Source: Parcubacteria group bacterium
GTDB taxonomy: Bacteria > Patescibacteriota > Minisyncoccia > Phycocordibacterales > CSBR16-119
Assembly (NCBI GenBank): GCA_943356745.1
Contig: CALRFT010000003.1
Coordinates: forward strand, 10,853 to 74,852
Direction of reading: 5' to 3'
Length of the DNA: 64,000 bases
Shown one piece after another: positions 40,377 to 54,835 of this stretch. Under the pieces are notes generated by a model, which worked only from the letters and a program-made list of their open reading frames with translations, had not been told where the DNA came from and searched no databases. Positions within the stretch are counted from its first letter, which is position 1; each line of letters opens with the position of its first letter. A program made the position numbers and the translations under genes.

Positions 40377-40799
40377 TTACACTCCCGTGCTACCAAAACC
40401 TCCCTCTCCTCGAGACGAATCTGAAAGCTCTGAAACCTCTTCAATTTCAGCTTGTACAATTGGTTGTATTAAACCTTGCGCAACCTTTTTCCCTTTCTCA
40501 AAGGTGTAGGGTTCTTGCCCAAGATTTATTACAGCAATTTGAAGTTCTCCTCGATATCCCGAGTCAATCACACCAGCGATTGTTGTCACACCTCCCTTTG
40601 TTGAAATCCCGCTTTTGTCCCACACTAAAAATACATAACCTTCCGGAAATTCCATAGAGATGCCTGTTTTTACCAGCCCACGTTCACCGGGATTTAAAGT
40701 GAGAGTTTCTGACGCAAAAATATCCATCCCTGCGTCTCCCTTTTTTGCATAACTTGGAAACACCGCGTCACTGTGAAGTTTTTTGATTTTGAGTTTCAT
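40377..40799 (-). CDS. dut: dUTP diphosphatase (trimeric dUTPase)
   Basis: MKLKIKKLHSDAVFPSYAKKGDAGMDIFA.., ..GVIDSGYRGEL.. and C-terminal motif V ..RGEGGFGSTG. Start is at the internal Met 40799. Confidence 0.9.
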   Translation of the reverse strand: MKLKIKKLHSDAVFPSYAKKGDAGMDIFASETLTLNPGERGLVKTGISMEFPEGYVFLVWDKSGISTKGGVTTIAGVIDSGYRGELQIAVINLGQEPYTFEKGKKVAQGLIQPIVQAEIEEVSELSDSSRGEGGFGSTGV

Positions 40800-40884
40800 A
40801 TTTAAATTGTACTCGGATGACCCAAAATCACAAACCTTGCACATCCAGCTTGTTTTCTATAGACTGAGGGAAAATTTATGCACT

Positions 40885-41415
40885 ATGAACAAAAACGCAA
40901 TTGACTGGTTTGATGAAATTGTTGAACCCTGTAAGAAAACAGCTCAAGAAAAAGCACAAAGCTATGGAAGTAGCTGGACCTGGTATCGAGCAAGAAGTCT
41001 TGTTGATCGTATTTTTAGTAAAGCAAAACGAATACGAACCATTCAAGACACTGGTGAAAACAAGGTTGGAGAATCAATCCAAAGTGAATTTGAAGCAATT
41101 TTGAATTATTCAGTAATGTTTCTCATTCAATCAAAACGTAAATTTCAACCAGAAAATCTTTCATCAGATGAAGTTTTGAAACAATATGAGGAAAATCTCC
41201 TCGTATGTAAAACACTCATGAAAAAGAAAAACCATGACTATGGTGAAGCATGGCGTGATATGTCACAGGTTGGAATTGTTGATGAAATCATCGTAAAGCT
41301 TGAACGAGTAAAACAATTACTCAAAGAAAAACAAGATGTGAGCGACAATATCCCAGATGTTACAAACTACGCTATTTTCGCCCTCATCTTGATCAAAGAA
41401 GGACGAGAAGATTGA
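40885..41415 (+). CDS. hypothetical all-alpha protein in the thymidylate cluster
   Basis: 177 aa from the in-frame ATG at 40885 (MNKNAIDWFDEI..). Helical with no confident family. Its placement between dut and the ThyX-like genes suggests a nucleotide-metabolism accessory. Confidence 0.45.
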   Translation: MNKNAIDWFDEIVEPCKKTAQEKAQSYGSSWTWYRARSLVDRIFSKAKRIRTIQDTGENKVGESIQSEFEAILNYSVMFLIQSKRKFQPENLSSDEVLKQYEENLLVCKTLMKKKNHDYGEAWRDMSQVGIVDEIIVKLERVKQLLKEKQDVSDNIPDVTNYAIFALILIKEGRED

Positions 41416-41425
41416 AAATTTAATT

Positions 41426-41457
41426 AACCGCCCGCGCTTTGCGCGAGCGGTTTTTTC
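41426..41457 (+). terminator. hairpin ccgcccgcgc-tttgc-gcgagcgg plus T-run
   Basis: GC-rich stem plus U-run. Followed by a TTGACC -35-like element upstream of the next gene. Confidence 0.65.
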
Positions 41458-41517
41458 TATTTGACCAAATCAAACCAAATAAGGTAAGCTTGGGGAAACC
41501 AATTAAATTTAAGTTCT

Positions 41518-42396
41518 ATGACACATGTAAAACTCGTACAACCACTTGAAACAACTGGTATCCATATTCGAGATCAGTATTCTCCAGAAGACACCGCAAT
41601 GATGCAAGCTCTTTATTCGCGAAGTCCTGACAGTGTTCTTAACCATGAAAAAAAGGTTGAGGAACAAGGATCTGAAAAATTTATGGATATATTCTATGTG
41701 GGATATGACCATAAAAGTATCGGTGATTGTGGGACCACAACCATCTTTATAGAAGGAGTCAGTATGATCACCGCAAAAATTTTGCAAGATTGGCAACTCT
41801 ACAGTGGACAAGAAGCAAGTACCCGGTATCTCGACTGGTCAAAACAATCTGTTATTGATCCTCTGAATACTGAACTTTCAAGAAGCATCATCCAAAAGAT
41901 GATGAACTTCTATGCTTGGGCTCAACCTAAGCTTGTAGAATTTTTGAAAGAAAAGTACGCAATGAAAGAAGGAGAAACAGAAAAGCAATACGAAAAAGCA
42001 ATCAATGCTCGTTCGTTTGACATCCTCCGTGGATTCCTTCCTTCCGGCGCACAAACCAATCTTTCATGGCACACAAATCTTAGACAAGCTGGTGACAAAC
42101 TTCAAAAGATGATTCACCATCCGCTACCAGAAGCTCGCATACTTGCAGAAAAAATCCTCTTACAACTTAAGGAAAAGTACACAGGAAGCTTTAACTTTCG
42201 TGACTATCCTGAAGGTGAAGAGTACACAAAAATGGAAATGGAAGAACTTGCTTTTTATGATCCTTGGTATGTTAATAAACCAACCCATGTCATGGATGGC
42301 GAAGTTTCTATGAAAACACAAATATGTGCAATGGATCTTCTTCCGTTTAAAAAATTCATTGACCAGAGACCTAAGTACACAAATCTCCCTGTTTAA
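41518..42396 (+). CDS. ThyX (Thy1, flavin-dependent thymidylate synthase)-like protein, divergent
   Basis: 292 aa. N-terminus ..MMQALYSRSPD.. matches the ThyX ..AARVSY.. region. ..ITAKILQDWQLYSGQEASTRY.. aligns position-for-position with the ThyX motif ARQWFRHRIASYNELSGRY but has DWQ in place of RHR. ..NLSWHTNLRQAGDKL.. matches the ThyX ..FFWTVNARSLMNFLNLR.. helix. Confidence 0.65.
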   Translation: MTHVKLVQPLETTGIHIRDQYSPEDTAMMQALYSRSPDSVLNHEKKVEEQGSEKFMDIFYVGYDHKSIGDCGTTTIFIEGVSMITAKILQDWQLYSGQEASTRYLDWSKQSVIDPLNTELSRSIIQKMMNFYAWAQPKLVEFLKEKYAMKEGETEKQYEKAINARSFDILRGFLPSGAQTNLSWHTNLRQAGDKLQKMIHHPLPEARILAEKILLQLKEKYTGSFNFRDYPEGEEYTKMEMEELAFYDPWYVNKPTHVMDGEVSMKTQICAMDLLPFKKFIDQRPKYTNLPV

Positions 42397-42411
42397 ACTG
42401 ATGAACTTGGA

Positions 42412-42864
42412 ATGATTACATGGGAATTCTTACTGGATTTTGGGTCTTTTCGTGATCTTCAACGCCACAGAAAAGGTGTTTGCCGTATTCCGAAACTCAC
42501 AGTTAAGTATGGTTTTGAATCTTGGTACCTTGATCAGCTTTCTCCAGAAATTAAAGAAGAGGCAGAAAATCTTCTTCGTGAAATTGAAAGTGACATTGTC
42601 GAATTGGGCGACGGACTTGAAGTTCAGTATTACATACCAATGGGATACAAAATCCCCTGCAAAAATACGTATGGGTTAATGGCAACTGTATACATCACTG
42701 AACTTCGTTCAGGAAAAACAGTTCATCCTACCATGAGAAAAATTGCCCAAGGTATGTATGAGAGACTTATGGAAAAGTTTCCCAATCTCAAACTCTACAC
42801 CGACCTCAGCGAAGATGAATTCTCGTATAAAAGAGGTGGTCAGGATATTATTGAGAAAAAGTAA
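42412..42864 (+). CDS. second, shorter ThyX-like domain protein retaining the RHR motif
   Basis: 150 aa. ..EFLLDFGSFRDLQRHRKGV.. matches the ThyX ..FTFHVKAPIFVARQWFRHR... C-terminal ..RKIAQGMYERLMEKFP.. matches ThyX ..ALAIARIFKEKCP... It is in the same reading frame as 41518..42396, separated only by one TAA codon (42394..42396). Confidence 0.6.
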   Translation: MITWEFLLDFGSFRDLQRHRKGVCRIPKLTVKYGFESWYLDQLSPEIKEEAENLLREIESDIVELGDGLEVQYYIPMGYKIPCKNTYGLMATVYITELRSGKTVHPTMRKIAQGMYERLMEKFPNLKLYTDLSEDEFSYKRGGQDIIEKK

Positions 42865-42866
42865 TT

Positions 42867-42896
42867 TAAAAACCCTGCACGTTTGCGGGGTTTTTC
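42867..42896 (+). terminator. hairpin ccctgc-acgttt-gcgggg plus T-run
   Basis: Stem plus U-run. Followed by a TTGACT -35-like element. Confidence 0.6.
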
Positions 42897-42960
42897 TTAT
42901 TTGACTAGACAGTCTTAAAAAGGTAATGTTTACAAAAAGTTCAATTAAATCTATAACACC

Positions 42961-43596
42961 ATGAGACTTTCTGCTATCGATATCAAAAAAGGAATCAATA
43001 AAGGATCTATTACTGTTGACCCATTGTTTCCCAATGCCATACAACCAGCAACAGTTGACCTCCATCTTGGAAGACACTTTCTTGTATTTGAAGCATCAAA
43101 CTTAAAATCACTTGATTTAACAAAACCAATGGAAGAACACATGCGGAAAGTAACACTTGATGAAAACCACCCAGAGTTTGTTCTTCATCCACACAAGTTC
43201 GCGCTCGGGATTACACACGAACTTATAGGGACTGACCTTGGTCACTGTTGCAAGATAGACGGAATTAGTTCGATTGCACGCGCAGGGATTTTTGTTCACA
43301 TCACAGCAAGCAACATCAATCCAGGTCACAAACTTCATGTAACTTTAGAACTATTCAATGCTCTTGAGGTTCCTGTTGCACTTCATTGGGGTATGCCTAT
43401 TGCACAGATGGAGTTTTATCAACTTAAAACCCCACTCACAAAAAATGACGTTTACAAAGGTAATTTTTCAACTGTTAGTAAACAATCCCCGACCGCAAGT
43501 CAGTACTTTAAAAACTACTTGCCAGAAAAAAGTGAATGGATAAAATTTATGTGTAAAATACATGGAATTAATCCAATAACATTTGAAAGAACCTAG
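42961..43596 (+). CDS. dcd: dCTP deaminase
   Basis: ..PATVDLHLGRHF.. and ..KIDGISSIARAGIFVHITA.. are dCTP deaminase/dUTPase-superfamily motifs; 211 aa. Confidence 0.85.
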   Translation: MRLSAIDIKKGINKGSITVDPLFPNAIQPATVDLHLGRHFLVFEASNLKSLDLTKPMEEHMRKVTLDENHPEFVLHPHKFALGITHELIGTDLGHCCKIDGISSIARAGIFVHITASNINPGHKLHVTLELFNALEVPVALHWGMPIAQMEFYQLKTPLTKNDVYKGNFSTVSKQSPTASQYFKNYLPEKSEWIKFMCKIHGINPITFERT

Positions 43597-43611
43597 TTTT
43601 TTCAGCAAATC

Positions 43612-43640
43612 AAAAGCGACCCTTTCGGGTCGCTTTTTTA
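43612..43640. terminator. bidirectional terminator aaaagcgaccc-tttc-gggtcgctttttt between dcd and rplK
   Basis: Perfect stem flanked by A-run and T-run. Confidence 0.75.
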
Positions 43641-51207: not shown

Positions 51208-52188
51208 TTAACTAGCTTTGTTATTTACTTCGTAATTAGTATTTTGTGATTCAAAGAAGTTTACAAGCTCATAGACATCAGTTGCTGTTGTCATCCATTT
51301 TGCAGGATTTGCAACATTGTAATATGGCTCAAGTCCAAGTTCTTCAAGTCGTCGATCTGCAACATACTGCACGTATTGATTTACGTATTCTGCATTAAGA
51401 CCAAGAATTCCATTTGGGAACAAGTCTTTGTTGTATTCAACTTCACAATTTACCCCCTCAATAATAATATTTCTTATCTCATCTGCAAAGTCCGCAGTGA
51501 GGAGTTCAGCATTCTCTTCAAGGATTGTCAAAATAAGGTTGATACCAAATTTAAGGTGAAGGGACTCATCTCGAATTACCCAGTTAATCATAGAACCGAA
51601 GTTTCGAAGTTTGTTTCTCTGTCTAAATGAAAGCATTACCATGAATCCTGAGTAGAACCATGTTCCCTCCATTACAATATTAGTCGCAACAAGATTTCGA
51701 ATAAAGTCTTTCTTTCCTTCAGCTGTTTCAATATCGAGACTTTGTTCAGTCATTCGTTCCATATATTTATTAATGAAATCTTCCTTCTTTTTCATTGAAG
51801 GCGTTTCAAGGTGAACCTTATAGATTTCATCTCGATCAAATGGGAATGTTTCGAGAACATATTCAAACGCAACACAGTGATTTGCCTCTTCCCACATTTG
51901 TTTTACCAAATACAGGTGGCATTCTGCTGATTTCAAATAAGGATATACCCCAAGTGCAAGTGAACGATTTACGATAAGTTCTGCTGGATTAAAAAATGCC
52001 ATAACAAACTTTACCGCCCTTTGTTCGTCCTCTGTCATTGCTTCAAAATCTTGAAGATCTTCTCGAAGAACAATTTCGTGAGGATACCATGTGTTTCGTA
52101 CCGCTTGATCATACAATTCTCGTGCCCAAGGATATTGACTTGGGTGCAAATTTACATCTGTTGGTGATGCTTTTCCAATGAGTGCCAT
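51208..52188 (-). CDS. nrdB: ribonucleoside-diphosphate reductase beta subunit (class I R2)
   Basis: Ferritin-like di-iron protein (..EANHCVAFEYVLE.., ..MVMLSFRQ.., ..DESLHLKFG..), adjacent to nrdA. Confidence 0.85.
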   Translation of the reverse strand: MALIGKASPTDVNLHPSQYPWARELYDQAVRNTWYPHEIVLREDLQDFEAMTEDEQRAVKFVMAFFNPAELIVNRSLALGVYPYLKSAECHLYLVKQMWEEANHCVAFEYVLETFPFDRDEIYKVHLETPSMKKKEDFINKYMERMTEQSLDIETAEGKKDFIRNLVATNIVMEGTWFYSGFMVMLSFRQRNKLRNFGSMINWVIRDESLHLKFGINLILTILEENAELLTADFADEIRNIIIEGVNCEVEYNKDLFPNGILGLNAEYVNQYVQYVADRRLEELGLEPYYNVANPAKWMTTATDVYELVNFFESQNTNYEVNNKAS

Positions 52189-52303: not shown

Positions 52304-54835
52304 TTATTGACAACTGTCACACTGATTCAAGAGTGAAGGATCTTCTGGAACTGTTTCACTTATTCCCCCGTCAGCCATTGCGTAACTGATTTTTGGCTTT
52401 ACAGCTTGAACAGTTTCTTCCACTGCTACAGGTGATGGAGTTGGTGTACTTTGAAGCGCTGCAAAACCTTTTCGCCCTAGTGTTTCTCGCTTGTTTACTG
52501 TAACTGTACTTTGTTCAGCGTTGTGTCGCGGCTTTACATGTGCGTAGTACGTTGATTTCAAACCTTTTTCCCATGCATCACTATAGATGCTTGAGAGTTC
52601 GTCATTTTCTCTTGTTTCAAGATACATATTTCGAGAAATTGCTTGGTCAATCCACTTTTGTGCTCGCGCAGTAACCTCAATAACAGCTTTTGGATTAATT
52701 TCAAATGAAGATTTATATCGATTTCGAACATCTTCAGGAATTTCAAGAATATGCTGAACATCTCCATGACTTTCAATAATTTTTGTTCGAGTTTTTTCCC
52801 AAAGACCAAGTGTCTTAAGTTCATTTACCAAGTTCACGTTAATGTCCATGTATTTTCCAGAGAATTTACTTCGAGCAAACACTTGAGCAAATCGAGCATC
52901 CATCCCAGGAACAGTTCCTGCAACAAGACCAATATTTGCATTTGGTGCAACAGCCATAAGTGTCGCGTTTCGCATTCCCTTTTTTACTTTTACTCGAAGC
53001 GCATCCCAATCAAGTCCGCCATGATGCATTCCCGTATCAACAGTAAGCTTTCCTCCTCGAACCTTATTAAGTTCTGCAAGAGTATCGTATGGAACCATTC
53101 CCTTACTCCATCTTGATCCTTCGAAATTTGCATATGAACCTCTTTCTTGTGCAAGATCTGCACTTGTATCAATTGCAATGTAACTAATGAATTCGAATAC
53201 CTGATCAATGAATTTGTAGGTTTGTTCACTTTCATATGCCCAACCCATTTTTTCAATAGTGTCTGCAATTCCCATAACTCCCATGCCAACAGCTCGATTG
53301 TTTTGATCTGAATTTCGAGCCTCTGCTACTGGAAGTACATTGATATCAAGAAGATTATCAAGTGAACGAATACCTGTTCGTACTGTTGTCTCAAGTTTTT
53401 GCCAGTCTAACTCTCTTCCTTTTAAGTGTGTTGCAAGGTTAAGTGATCCGAGATTGCATACAGCAATGTTGTCTTTATCTTGCGGAAGTGCAATTTCTGT
53501 ACAAAGATTAGACATATGAATTGTTCCAGTGTTGTTGTTGATTGCCCGAACATTGAATGCATCTTTCCATGTGAGCCATGGGTGTGATGTACTTACAAGT
53601 GCAACAAGCATTTTTTTCCAAATCTTCACAGCACTATCAACTTTATGAAGTCGAAGTTTTCCTTCTTGAGCCATCGTAATATATTCAGCATATCGCTTTG
53701 AGAATTTTTCTCCATACAACTCAACAAGATCTGGTGTTTCTTTTGGATCGAACATATACCATTCTTCATCAGCGTGAACTCGTCGCATAAATTCGTCGTT
53801 AATATACGCCGCAGTATTTGCTGTTCTCATTCTCTCGTGTTCGTCTCCTGCGTTGTGTTTCCAATCAATAAATTCTGGAAAATCCATGTGCCATGGTTCC
53901 ATATAGAAACAAAGCGCTCCTTTTTTCTTTCCACCTCGAACGATTGAACGAATAGCAACGTCCATGATTTTTGCAAAAGTTGTTGGACCACTTGAAGCTC
54001 CTCCATGAGAAAGCGGTGAACCTGTGGCTCGAAGTTTTGTAACAGAAACCCCAAGTCCTCCTGTTGCTTTTGAAATCATCATCACATCAGCAACTGTTTT
54101 TGAAATATTTGCCATGTCATCTTCCATTTGAATCAAGAAACAGTTTGAGAGTGCTGCATTTTTTGTTCCTGATCCAATATTTGCTGAACCTCCAGCAATA
54201 TAATCAAGTTGTGACATTGCGTTGTAAAGCTCAATTGCTTTTTCTGTCGCATCTTTTTCAATGAACGTAAGTCCCATTGCAATTCGCATAAAAGCAAACT
54301 GTGGAGTTTCGTATGATGTTTCCCCGTCTCGCTTAAGCGTATATCGGTGCATCAATGTTGAAGCACCAGCGTAATCAAAAAGATTATCTCTTTCAACCTT
54401 AAGTGCTTTTGCAAGTTTTTCAAGATCGAAATTGTTTTTCATTTCTTCTCGAAGAATTCCTTTTGTTACTGCATCTTGAATGTGTTTTGCAAATTTAGCT
54501 TCGTGAAGTTCTTGAACAGCATTTGGGTTATCTCGTTCAAATTCACCAAGAATATTTTTGTAAACTGTTTTTAAGAAAAGTCGAGTTGCAACAGTACCGT
54601 AATCTGGATCATTTTGTATATTTTGGAGTGCTGCACTAATTGTAGCCTGATCAAGTTCGTCTTCTGTAATTCCATTATAAAGAGTAAGTGAAGTCTCAGT
54701 TGCAATTTGAGTCACTTTTGAAAGCCAGTCAGGAAGGCCAGCGCAAGCTCGTTCAATAGATTTGTTAATTTTATCAGCGTCAAATGGTTGTTTTGAACCA
54801 TCTCGCTTTGTTACATAGATTGTAGTCATAAGCAA
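52304..54835 (-). CDS. nrdA: ribonucleoside-diphosphate reductase alpha subunit (class I) with N-terminal ATP-cone
   Basis: ATP-cone MTTIYVTKRDGSKQPFDADKINKSIERA.., catalytic ..NLCTEIALP.. and a C-terminal Cys pair (..CDSCQ). Confidence 0.9.
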   Translation of the reverse strand: MLMTTIYVTKRDGSKQPFDADKINKSIERACAGLPDWLSKVTQIATETSLTLYNGITEDELDQATISAALQNIQNDPDYGTVATRLFLKTVYKNILGEFERDNPNAVQELHEAKFAKHIQDAVTKGILREEMKNNFDLEKLAKALKVERDNLFDYAGASTLMHRYTLKRDGETSYETPQFAFMRIAMGLTFIEKDATEKAIELYNAMSQLDYIAGGSANIGSGTKNAALSNCFLIQMEDDMANISKTVADVMMISKATGGLGVSVTKLRATGSPLSHGGASSGPTTFAKIMDVAIRSIVRGGKKKGALCFYMEPWHMDFPEFIDWKHNAGDEHERMRTANTAAYINDEFMRRVHADEEWYMFDPKETPDLVELYGEKFSKRYAEYITMAQEGKLRLHKVDSAVKIWKKMLVALVSTSHPWLTWKDAFNVRAINNNTGTIHMSNLCTEIALPQDKDNIAVCNLGSLNLATHLKGRELDWQKLETTVRTGIRSLDNLLDINVLPVAEARNSDQNNRAVGMGVMGIADTIEKMGWAYESEQTYKFIDQVFEFISYIAIDTSADLAQERGSYANFEGSRWSKGMVPYDTLAELNKVRGGKLTVDTGMHHGGLDWDALRVKVKKGMRNATLMAVAPNANIGLVAGTVPGMDARFAQVFARSKFSGKYMDINVNLVNELKTLGLWEKTRTKIIESHGDVQHILEIPEDVRNRYKSSFEINPKAVIEVTARAQKWIDQAISRNMYLETRENDELSSIYSDAWEKGLKSTYYAHVKPRHNAEQSTVTVNKRETLGRKGFAALQSTPTPSPVAVEETVQAVKPKISYAMADGGISETVPEDPSLLNQCDSCQ

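Follow-up and report, generated by a model that had tools for sequence, protein, structure and literature searches.

A double-domain ThyX gene interrupted by a single in-frame TAA in a Parcubacteria group assembly

INTRODUCTION

Canonical ThyX assembles as a homotetramer whose four identical active sites each lie at an interface of three subunits (PMC11940539, PMC5954106, PMC6514825). In the structures from Mycobacterium tuberculosis and Helicobacter pylori, subunit A gives the RHR motif and Arg199, subunit B gives Ser71 and Arg190, and subunit C gives Ser105, Arg107, and Tyr108 (PMC6514825). A domain-duplicated form was recorded in 2009 in Chloroflexi "and a few other species" and described as "not characterized" (PMC3224940), which is the one mention of a duplicated ThyX that we found in the literature. 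Here, we examine two open reading frames (ORFs) that together encode a protein of this duplicated kind in a 64,000-nucleotide (nt) stretch of DNA from a Parcubacteria group bacterium (GenBank assembly GCA_943356745.1, contig CALRFT010000003.1), hereafter the window. The ORFs lie in one frame and are parted by a single TAA. We put the probability at about 0.85 that they are pieces of one double-domain ThyX gene, interrupted in this assembly only. The original prediction for this locus, made from the DNA letters alone, had instead favored an obligate pseudo-heterodimeric ThyX, formed either by two polypeptides or by a read-through or recoded fusion, with a decaying pseudogene as the alternative.

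Canonical ThyX proteins (Thermotoga maritima TM0449, M. tuberculosis Rv2754c, and PBCV-1 A674R) have the fold found in both domains of the window family, and the catalytic residues are shared as well (RHR, the loop Ser/Arg/Tyr, the GHxS serine, and the NxR arginine). The same reaction would be expected of the window family, and the window gene lies in a context that supplies deoxyuridylate (dUMP). The window family differs from canonical ThyX in having two folds per chain with the signature divided between them, and half of its sites are predicted to be dead. As in the Chloroflexi proteins, the duplicated ThyX domain resides in one chain; the window copy adds an internal stop. The same double-domain module is found in six fusions of 613–635 amino acids (aa) (P0010, P0034, P0040, P0042, P0047, and P0103; 51–54% identity over 97% of the query), which add an N-terminal deoxycytidylate (dCMP) deaminase domain, a role filled in the window by separate dcd and dut genes. 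Such a fusion has the makeup of a two-step enzyme, dCMP to dUMP to thymidylate (dTMP), in one chain. The ThyX of Chlamydia, at ~529 aa, is presumably another long form. Liu and Yang are said to have distinguished, in 2004, a group with "distinctive ThyX motifs."

RESULTS

One gene, interrupted at codon 293

ORF1 (41518–42396, plus strand; 292 aa) encodes ThyX domain 1 (D1) and the first third of domain 2 (D2), and ORF2 (42412–42864, plus strand; 150 aa) encodes the remainder of D2. The coordinates bear out the description of two same-frame ORFs split by one TAA and 15 nt: the sole intervening stop is the TAA at 42394–42396 (plus strand; codon 293). The 15 nt that follow (42397–42411, plus strand) are five in-frame codons (TDELG) of the ancestral ORF that precede the next ATG. 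The peptide QTDELGM is identical in the homologues P0001 and P0121, Gly298 is invariant in relatives, and the Met that starts ORF2 is already present in both homologues as an internal residue.

Relatives carry a sense codon where the window has the stop. P0121, which was grouped in the cluster of ORF1 and whose 448 aa equal the read-through length exactly, and P0001 (447 aa) both have Gln at the site; P0121 reads ...LPTQTDELGMITWEF... and the window ...LPV*TDELGMITWEF.... The two closest relatives are 92% and 86% identical to the window protein, the latter being P0001. At the DNA level, the TAA aligns with CAA in locus L002 (90% nucleotide identity) and with CAG in locus L001 (79%), both encoding Gln. 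A single C-to-T substitution in the first position of the codon, from CAA (Gln293) to TAA, explains the stop. Conservation was scored throughout on 151 uninterrupted relatives from Patescibacteria, Micavibrio-like Alphaproteobacteria, and Bdellovibrionales; among them, the codon-293 position encodes Phe (107), Arg (24), Glu (6), Gln (4), or Ile (2), and a stop in none. All 41 other loci that span the site, from genomes and metagenomes, are unbroken, given TGA reassignment in two of them (L016 and L019). The TAA is the single lesion in the 1,347 nt of the gene, with no frameshifts or further stops. The original prediction had proposed that a stop conserved in orthologues would mean two genes and a sense codon a fusion or a pseudogene. 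The orthologues have sense codons (CAA or CAG for Gln in the closest, mostly Phe elsewhere) and are unbroken at 41 of 41 loci, so by that reasoning the two-gene design fails.

Database searches place both ORFs in one known family. The read-through translation retrieved >4,700 homologues. Among the 120 listed, all are uninterrupted except the product of ORF1 itself; most are ~430–460 aa long, six are dCMP deaminase fusions of ~613–635 aa, and the database names, where given, are FAD-dependent thymidylate synthase or ThyX. The long double-domain family is large, with 807 clusters at 50% identity. Its hidden Markov model (HMM) matches the two products collinearly, ORF1 at model positions 3–273 (E = 8e-125) and ORF2 at 277–431 (E = 3e-71). 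The window sequence retains the family-invariant residues examined, save the interrupted codon 293, and it departs from the one uninterrupted ORF of about 430–460 aa that marks the family through the TAA at that codon. The window gene is thus an interrupted member of an already known and annotated long ThyX form, and we read the interruption as lineage-specific and young, not as an evolved two-subunit design.

No recurrent natural split was found: among 1.84 billion representatives searched, the relatives of ORF2 include no class of ~150 aa. The short ones have continuous lengths of 115–360 aa and varying start points, as is typical of contig-end fragments. A naturally split enzyme was rejected as a candidate, the stop being unique to this assembly and the cut lying inside D2; a start codon for the second piece is the only mark of such an enzyme that could be present. 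Searches for exact copies of ORF1, ORF2, and Dcd brought up no further contig with the TAA, a scan of JGI metagenomes gave one distant locus only, and the source genome was not among the results of a GTDB scan.

Outside Patescibacteria, double-domain ThyX is found mainly in Micavibrio-like Alphaproteobacteria and Bdellovibrionales (loci L003–L041). These host groups are small-celled and epibiotic or predatory, as are many Patescibacteria, and the distribution may track lifestyle or gene transfer.

One chain with two modeled ThyX folds

D1 comprises residues 1–221 (41518–42180, plus strand), as delimited by the Pfam Thy1 match, alignment to ThyX structures, conservation, and AlphaFold 2 secondary structure. 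D2 comprises about residues 222–448 of the ~448-aa chain; from alignment of a D2-only model, ORF1 also encodes the linker and the first ~70 residues of D2 (42181–42393, plus strand). An AlphaFold 2 model of the uninterrupted P0001 (predicted local distance difference test, 90.3; predicted template modeling score, 0.90) contains the same order of secondary-structure elements twice. Among the PDB matches listed for this full model, every one is either ThyX or PolB, a methylase with the ThyX fold. None of those listed spans both domains, each covering at most about a third of the model, and the best template modeling (TM) score normalized to the query is 0.31. No solved structure of the double-domain arrangement emerged from this PDB fold search.

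Sequence profiles did not identify D2 as ThyX. A PDB search with a profile of the C-terminal half found no ThyX, and hhalign of D1 against D2 gave 11.8% probability with an alignment that was weak and partly implausible. The assignment of D2 to ThyX was settled by modeling D2 separately and searching with its fold. The D2-only model (P0001 residues 222–447) gave 137 fold matches at E ≤ 1e-3, and the best 50 of these are all ThyX (TM 0.55–0.65, with ~200 of ~215 columns aligned). Both domains are, as modeled, complete ThyX folds.

The stop does not fall at the domain boundary. It lies ~70 residues into D2 (residue 72 of the D2-only model), with codon 293 in a short helix just ahead of a D2 core strand (residues 299–307). 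ORF2 accordingly covers the last two thirds of a full-size D2 and is not the shorter ThyX-like domain that had been described, although the claim that both halves are ThyX agrees with the collinear HMM matches and the D2 fold. The Pfam result follows the same anatomy. Alignment to Thy1 (PF02511), proposed earlier as a check on both pieces, succeeds for ORF1 (51.5 bits over residues 28–220; cut-off, 24.8) and fails for ORF2 (13.6 bits, E = 0.058), a failure that arises because the ORF limits do not match the domain limits. For the uninterrupted P0001 the score is 63.8 bits, spread over two stretches, and a match was obtained for all 114 family members compared.

Active-site residues are divided between the domains

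All four motifs first read from the sequence are present. In D1, DWQ (41788–41796) occupies the place of RHR, next to the catalytic loop YSGQEASTRY (41800–41829), and the domain also holds GHxS (His65 and Ser67), Arg171, and Arg189. ORF2 contributes FRDLQRHR (RHR at 42463–42471), Arg312-Asp313, Arg397, His403, and Arg407, together with a degenerate LTVKY. Profile alignment to the M. tuberculosis and Corynebacterium glutamicum ThyX structures sets D-W-P/Q on R-H-R and S..S.RY on S..S.R[YF].

This division is shared by the relatives. Ten D1 residues are conserved in 150–151 of 151 (G97, Q98, E99, S101, R103, Y104, H65, S67, R171, and R189), whereas none has RHR in D1, where the three positions read Asp (139) or Glu (9), Trp (118) or Asn (20), and Pro (104) or Gln (37). 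In D2, R312, D313, R316, H317, R318, R397, H403, and R407 are conserved in 149–151 of 151 (H317 in 150), and the loop after RHR has T/D-x-K/R/D/E-F/L/Y in place of Ser-x-Arg-Tyr. Neither domain alone has the full RHRxxS..SxR(Y) signature, which is complete only across D1 and D2. By structure alignment, S67 of D1 is equivalent to Ser71, R189 to Arg190, and S101/R103/Y104 to Ser105/Arg107/Tyr108, which are residues of the B and C types, and D2 retains the A-type RHR.

RHR and S..SxRY are indeed retained in complementary fashion, and this fits the way in which ThyX sites are put together (PMC6514825). By these sequence comparisons, the complementarity is an old, family-wide trait. The original prediction had tied it to the split; the trait is invariant in 151 uninterrupted single chains, and it is therefore unrelated to the split. 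The logic of a pseudo-heterodimer was right, but it applies within one chain and across the family, not to two polypeptides. The orthologues are single and uninterrupted, as had been foreseen for the case of a nonsense-mutated pseudogene, yet they are not canonical ThyX.

We propose that one ~448-aa chain with two ThyX folds would act as an intramolecular pseudo-heterodimer. D1 has lost the FAD-binding RHR and kept Ser101, Arg103, Tyr104, the GHxS serine, and Arg189, and D2 has kept RHR and lost the catalytic loop. Because RHR and the Ser/Arg/Tyr residues come from different subunits in a canonical site, a dimer of double-domain chains should keep two of the four sites. Such a ThyX-like pseudo-tetramer would have complete sites where D2 takes the A position and dead sites where D1 does, and would make dTMP from dUMP furnished by the products of the adjacent dut and dcd genes. 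In this assembly, the change from CAA to TAA cuts the gene for this chain ~70 residues inside D2.

Selection and divergence around the stop

Constraint is similar on the two sides of the TAA. Between the window and L002, the ratio of nonsynonymous to synonymous substitution rates (dN/dS) is 0.093 upstream of the stop and 0.078 downstream. On the window's own branch, with L001 as the outgroup, there are 34 synonymous and 15 nonsynonymous changes upstream and 6 and 3 downstream. Neutrality would lead us to expect 79.5% nonsynonymous changes (downstream P = 0.0035), and the upstream and downstream parts behave alike. The lack of relaxed constraint downstream means that the stop is young, or is an artefact, or that the downstream piece is still in use; a long-decaying pseudogene, the alternative offered by the original prediction, does not agree with it.

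Divergence between the window (41427–43626) and L002 (533–2731) is mosaic. The synonymous divergence (dS) of thyX is 0.66 over the first 292 codons and 0.18 over the last 155. For the flanking genes, identity is 97.6% in Dcd and only 41% in the upstream DUF1599 protein, and DNA similarity ends at the terminator. This mosaic suggests recombination breakpoints in and beside thyX.

Flanking genes and signals

The gene dut (40377–40844, minus strand; Pfam dUTPase, E = 1e-28) encodes a dUTPase that supplies dUMP, and dcd (42961–43596, plus strand; Pfam DCD, E = 1e-31) encodes a dCTP deaminase-like protein and has its own leader and terminator (43612–43637). These neighbors support the dUMP/dTMP module that had been read from the context, although dut is not directly upstream of thyX. 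Between the two stands a DUF1599 gene (nucleotide modification associated domain 1; 40783–41415, plus strand, start codon uncertain; PF07659, E = 5e-37), whose long ORF in the window overlaps the 5′ end of the divergent dut. A DUF1599 gene also lies directly upstream of long thyX at L002 (1–513) and L008 (5233–5856), and this adjacency in three distant genomes hints at a functional tie to dTMP synthesis. Farther along the window, nrdB (51208–52188, minus strand; Pfam E = 3e-75) encodes the small chain of ribonucleotide reductase, and the adjoining 843-aa ORF (52304–54835, minus strand) probably encodes the large chain. The presence of ribonucleotide reductase implies de novo deoxynucleotide synthesis, which would make loss of thyX costlier. 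Searches of the window with approximate queries found no thyA, as originally stated, and no tdk or canonical or second thyX.

The terminators noted earlier are real as terminator-like hairpins (41426–41452, 42868–42895, and 43612–43637). The hairpin at 41426–41452 (entered on the plus strand; 12-bp stem, nine GC pairs) marks the end of the DUF1599 unit and the 5′ bound of the thyX unit. The scan places its stem on the minus strand, and shorter hairpins on the plus strand, at 41433–41449, precede a T run; pairing in the stem is preserved in L001 by compensatory changes. The hairpin at 42868–42895 (plus strand; 12-bp stem, then a T run), at the end of the thyX unit, is conserved in L002. A scan for hairpins and promoters found neither a terminator nor a promoter between ORF1 and ORF2.

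Alignment with L001 and L002 outlines a promoter-like element and leader ahead of thyX (41458–41517, plus strand), of the form TATTTGACCA ... AAGGTAAG ... CCAATTAAAT ... ATG, and the same layout precedes dcd (42898–42960). The TTGACx elements in the original prediction are thus real and conserved in relatives, but they fall under the consensus promoter scan: the leader element scores below the sigma-70 consensus, and TATTTGAC alone is not enriched in the window. Comparison of the upstream regions (window 41416–41520 and 42862–42963; L001, 70–171; L002, 525–626 and 1968–2069) shows thyX and dcd to be near-parallel in the order terminator hairpin, TATTTGAC(C/T)A, AAGGTAA(G/T), CAATTAAAT, and ATG. 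This layout is conserved in relatives whose coding DNA has diverged by ~10–20%, and it could be a shared promoter or operator of the deoxynucleotide pathway. Rfam gave no match in the thyX and dcd leaders. The window's leaders are A/T-rich, and just one of its 42 ATG-started genes has a GGAG, GAGG, or AGGA core at −16 to −7 (upstream 25 nt scanned); translation in this organism seems to begin with essentially no Shine-Dalgarno pairing.

TGA codons in two relatives

The thyX orthologue of L016 (3475–4743; JALVSO010000019.1, a metagenome-assembled genome [MAG] named "Candidatus Parcubacteria bacterium") has five in-frame TGA codons. Four stand at invariant or near-invariant Trp positions (QD*P, LER*RDFY, A*HTNLRQ, and E*YL), and the fifth where Alphaproteobacteria have Trp. 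The alignment suggests that TGA encodes Trp in this organism, unlike the TGA-to-Gly code of Gracilibacteria and Absconditabacteria. At L019 (5995–7245, a Candidatus Gracilibacteria MAG), thyX has one in-frame TGA at a variable position, which fits code 25 of that lineage.

DISCUSSION

Given that the two ORFs derive from one gene, the question is what the stop does. A genuine mutation that destroys or severely impairs enzyme function is a serious contender, to which we give somewhat less than even odds. We are more tentative about a real stop that is tolerated, with ribosomes restarting at the ATG at 42412 and the products of ORF1 and ORF2 reassembling non-covalently into an active ThyX. That ATG is in frame only 15 nt past the stop, no terminator or promoter separates the pieces, and constraint on the downstream piece is not relaxed, although a very recent mutation would explain the absence of decay equally well. 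The rarity of Shine-Dalgarno sequences (1 of 42 genes) and the tight packing of genes make a restart without such a sequence plausible. Thymidylate synthesis is normally indispensable, and the window holds no thyA, tdk, or second thyX; a back-up enzyme may nevertheless be encoded elsewhere in the genome, as the search covered the 64 kb of the window only. Reassembly would also have to cope with a cut made within a domain, just ahead of a core β-strand, and no relative examined is split, the short ones resembling contig-end fragments. The fuller form of this idea is doubtful, and more so than the restart itself: that a tolerated TAA and a restart free of Shine-Dalgarno pairing have yielded, from a ThyX domain severed ahead of its second β-strand, a natural fragment-complemented, half-of-sites enzyme, in a family that works as a pseudo-heterotetramer with D2 binding flavin and D1 doing the chemistry.

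It is unlikely, but worth keeping in view, that the TAA is an assembly or base-calling artefact and that the organism has CAA and an intact gene. One base in one assembly makes the whole difference, the rest of the ORF is flawless and under purifying selection on either side, and, read through the stop, it has the same length as its closest relative. Against an artefact, the consensus of short-read assemblies seldom contains substitution errors, the site is outside any homopolymer, and real nonsense alleles occur more often than such errors. An old, decaying pseudogene, left after a host-dependent organism with a reduced genome lost thyX long ago, could account for a premature stop, the gene being dispensable to symbionts with nucleotide salvage. 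We regard it as very improbable, given a single lesion over 1,347 nt, the absence of frameshifts, a dN/dS of 0.08–0.09 on both sides of the stop, non-neutral downstream changes on the window's own branch, a conserved promoter-like leader and terminator, and intact dut, dcd, and nrdB nearby. Least credible is an evolved design, whether an obligate two-gene heterodimer or a programmed read-through or recoded fusion. The complementary motifs are real and the two ORFs are co-transcribed, but the complementarity is present in uninterrupted single chains, the stop lacks conservation, with Gln or Phe codons in its place in relatives, the cut is away from the domain boundary, and TAA is a standard stop in the window.

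The same evidence bears on read-through of the TAA by any route, which has at best a very slim chance. Reassignment of TAA was rejected, as this codon ends 48 of the 60 long ORFs in the window. Six other pairs of ORFs share a frame and are one stop apart; five were scanned and are unrelated complete genes (sugar transferase/flippase, RecO/DUF11, L6/L18, NrdB/YceI, and Adk/Map), and one pair was not scanned. With TAA serving as a normal terminator and these same-frame pairs being separate genes, TAA recoding is excluded, and with it the recoded fusion of the original prediction. RNA near the stop folds like shuffled controls (z = −0.16), giving no sign of a read-through structure, and no suppressor tRNA was found in the window.

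Several points weigh against reading the locus as one functional type of thymidylate synthase gene with a real, young interruption. The TAA is known from one assembly only, and it may be a real mutation or an assembly error. Because the stop is missing from every close relative, only the lack of decay sets a limit on its age. On the NCBIfam thyX equivalog model TIGR02170 (cut-off, 87.9 bits), ORF1 scores 23.8 bits and full-length relatives 27–34 bits; scores so far under the cut-off mean that the family is not a canonical thyX equivalog, and its identification as a thymidylate synthase stays provisional to that extent. The prediction of two live sites in four draws on sequence equivalences and the residue map of the review, and any equivalence of Arg397 and Arg407 of D2 to canonical Arg165 and Arg174 is tentative, the hhalign result being weak and partly implausible. 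For thymidylate synthesis speak the fold and residue conservation, the dut and dcd neighbors, nrdB, and the dCMP deaminase fusions, which together make the assignment probable.

For annotation, ORF1 and ORF2 are better joined and flagged as one interrupted thyX than entered as a new heteromeric enzyme. What the locus offers enzymology concerns the family: RHR is confined to D2 and the catalytic Ser/Arg/Tyr loop to D1, and this divided signature predicts two live and two dead sites. ThyX is an antibacterial target, and a natural half-of-sites variant could help show what each subunit contributes. If true, a tolerated split in the window gene would show the fission of a gene for an essential enzyme as it happens.

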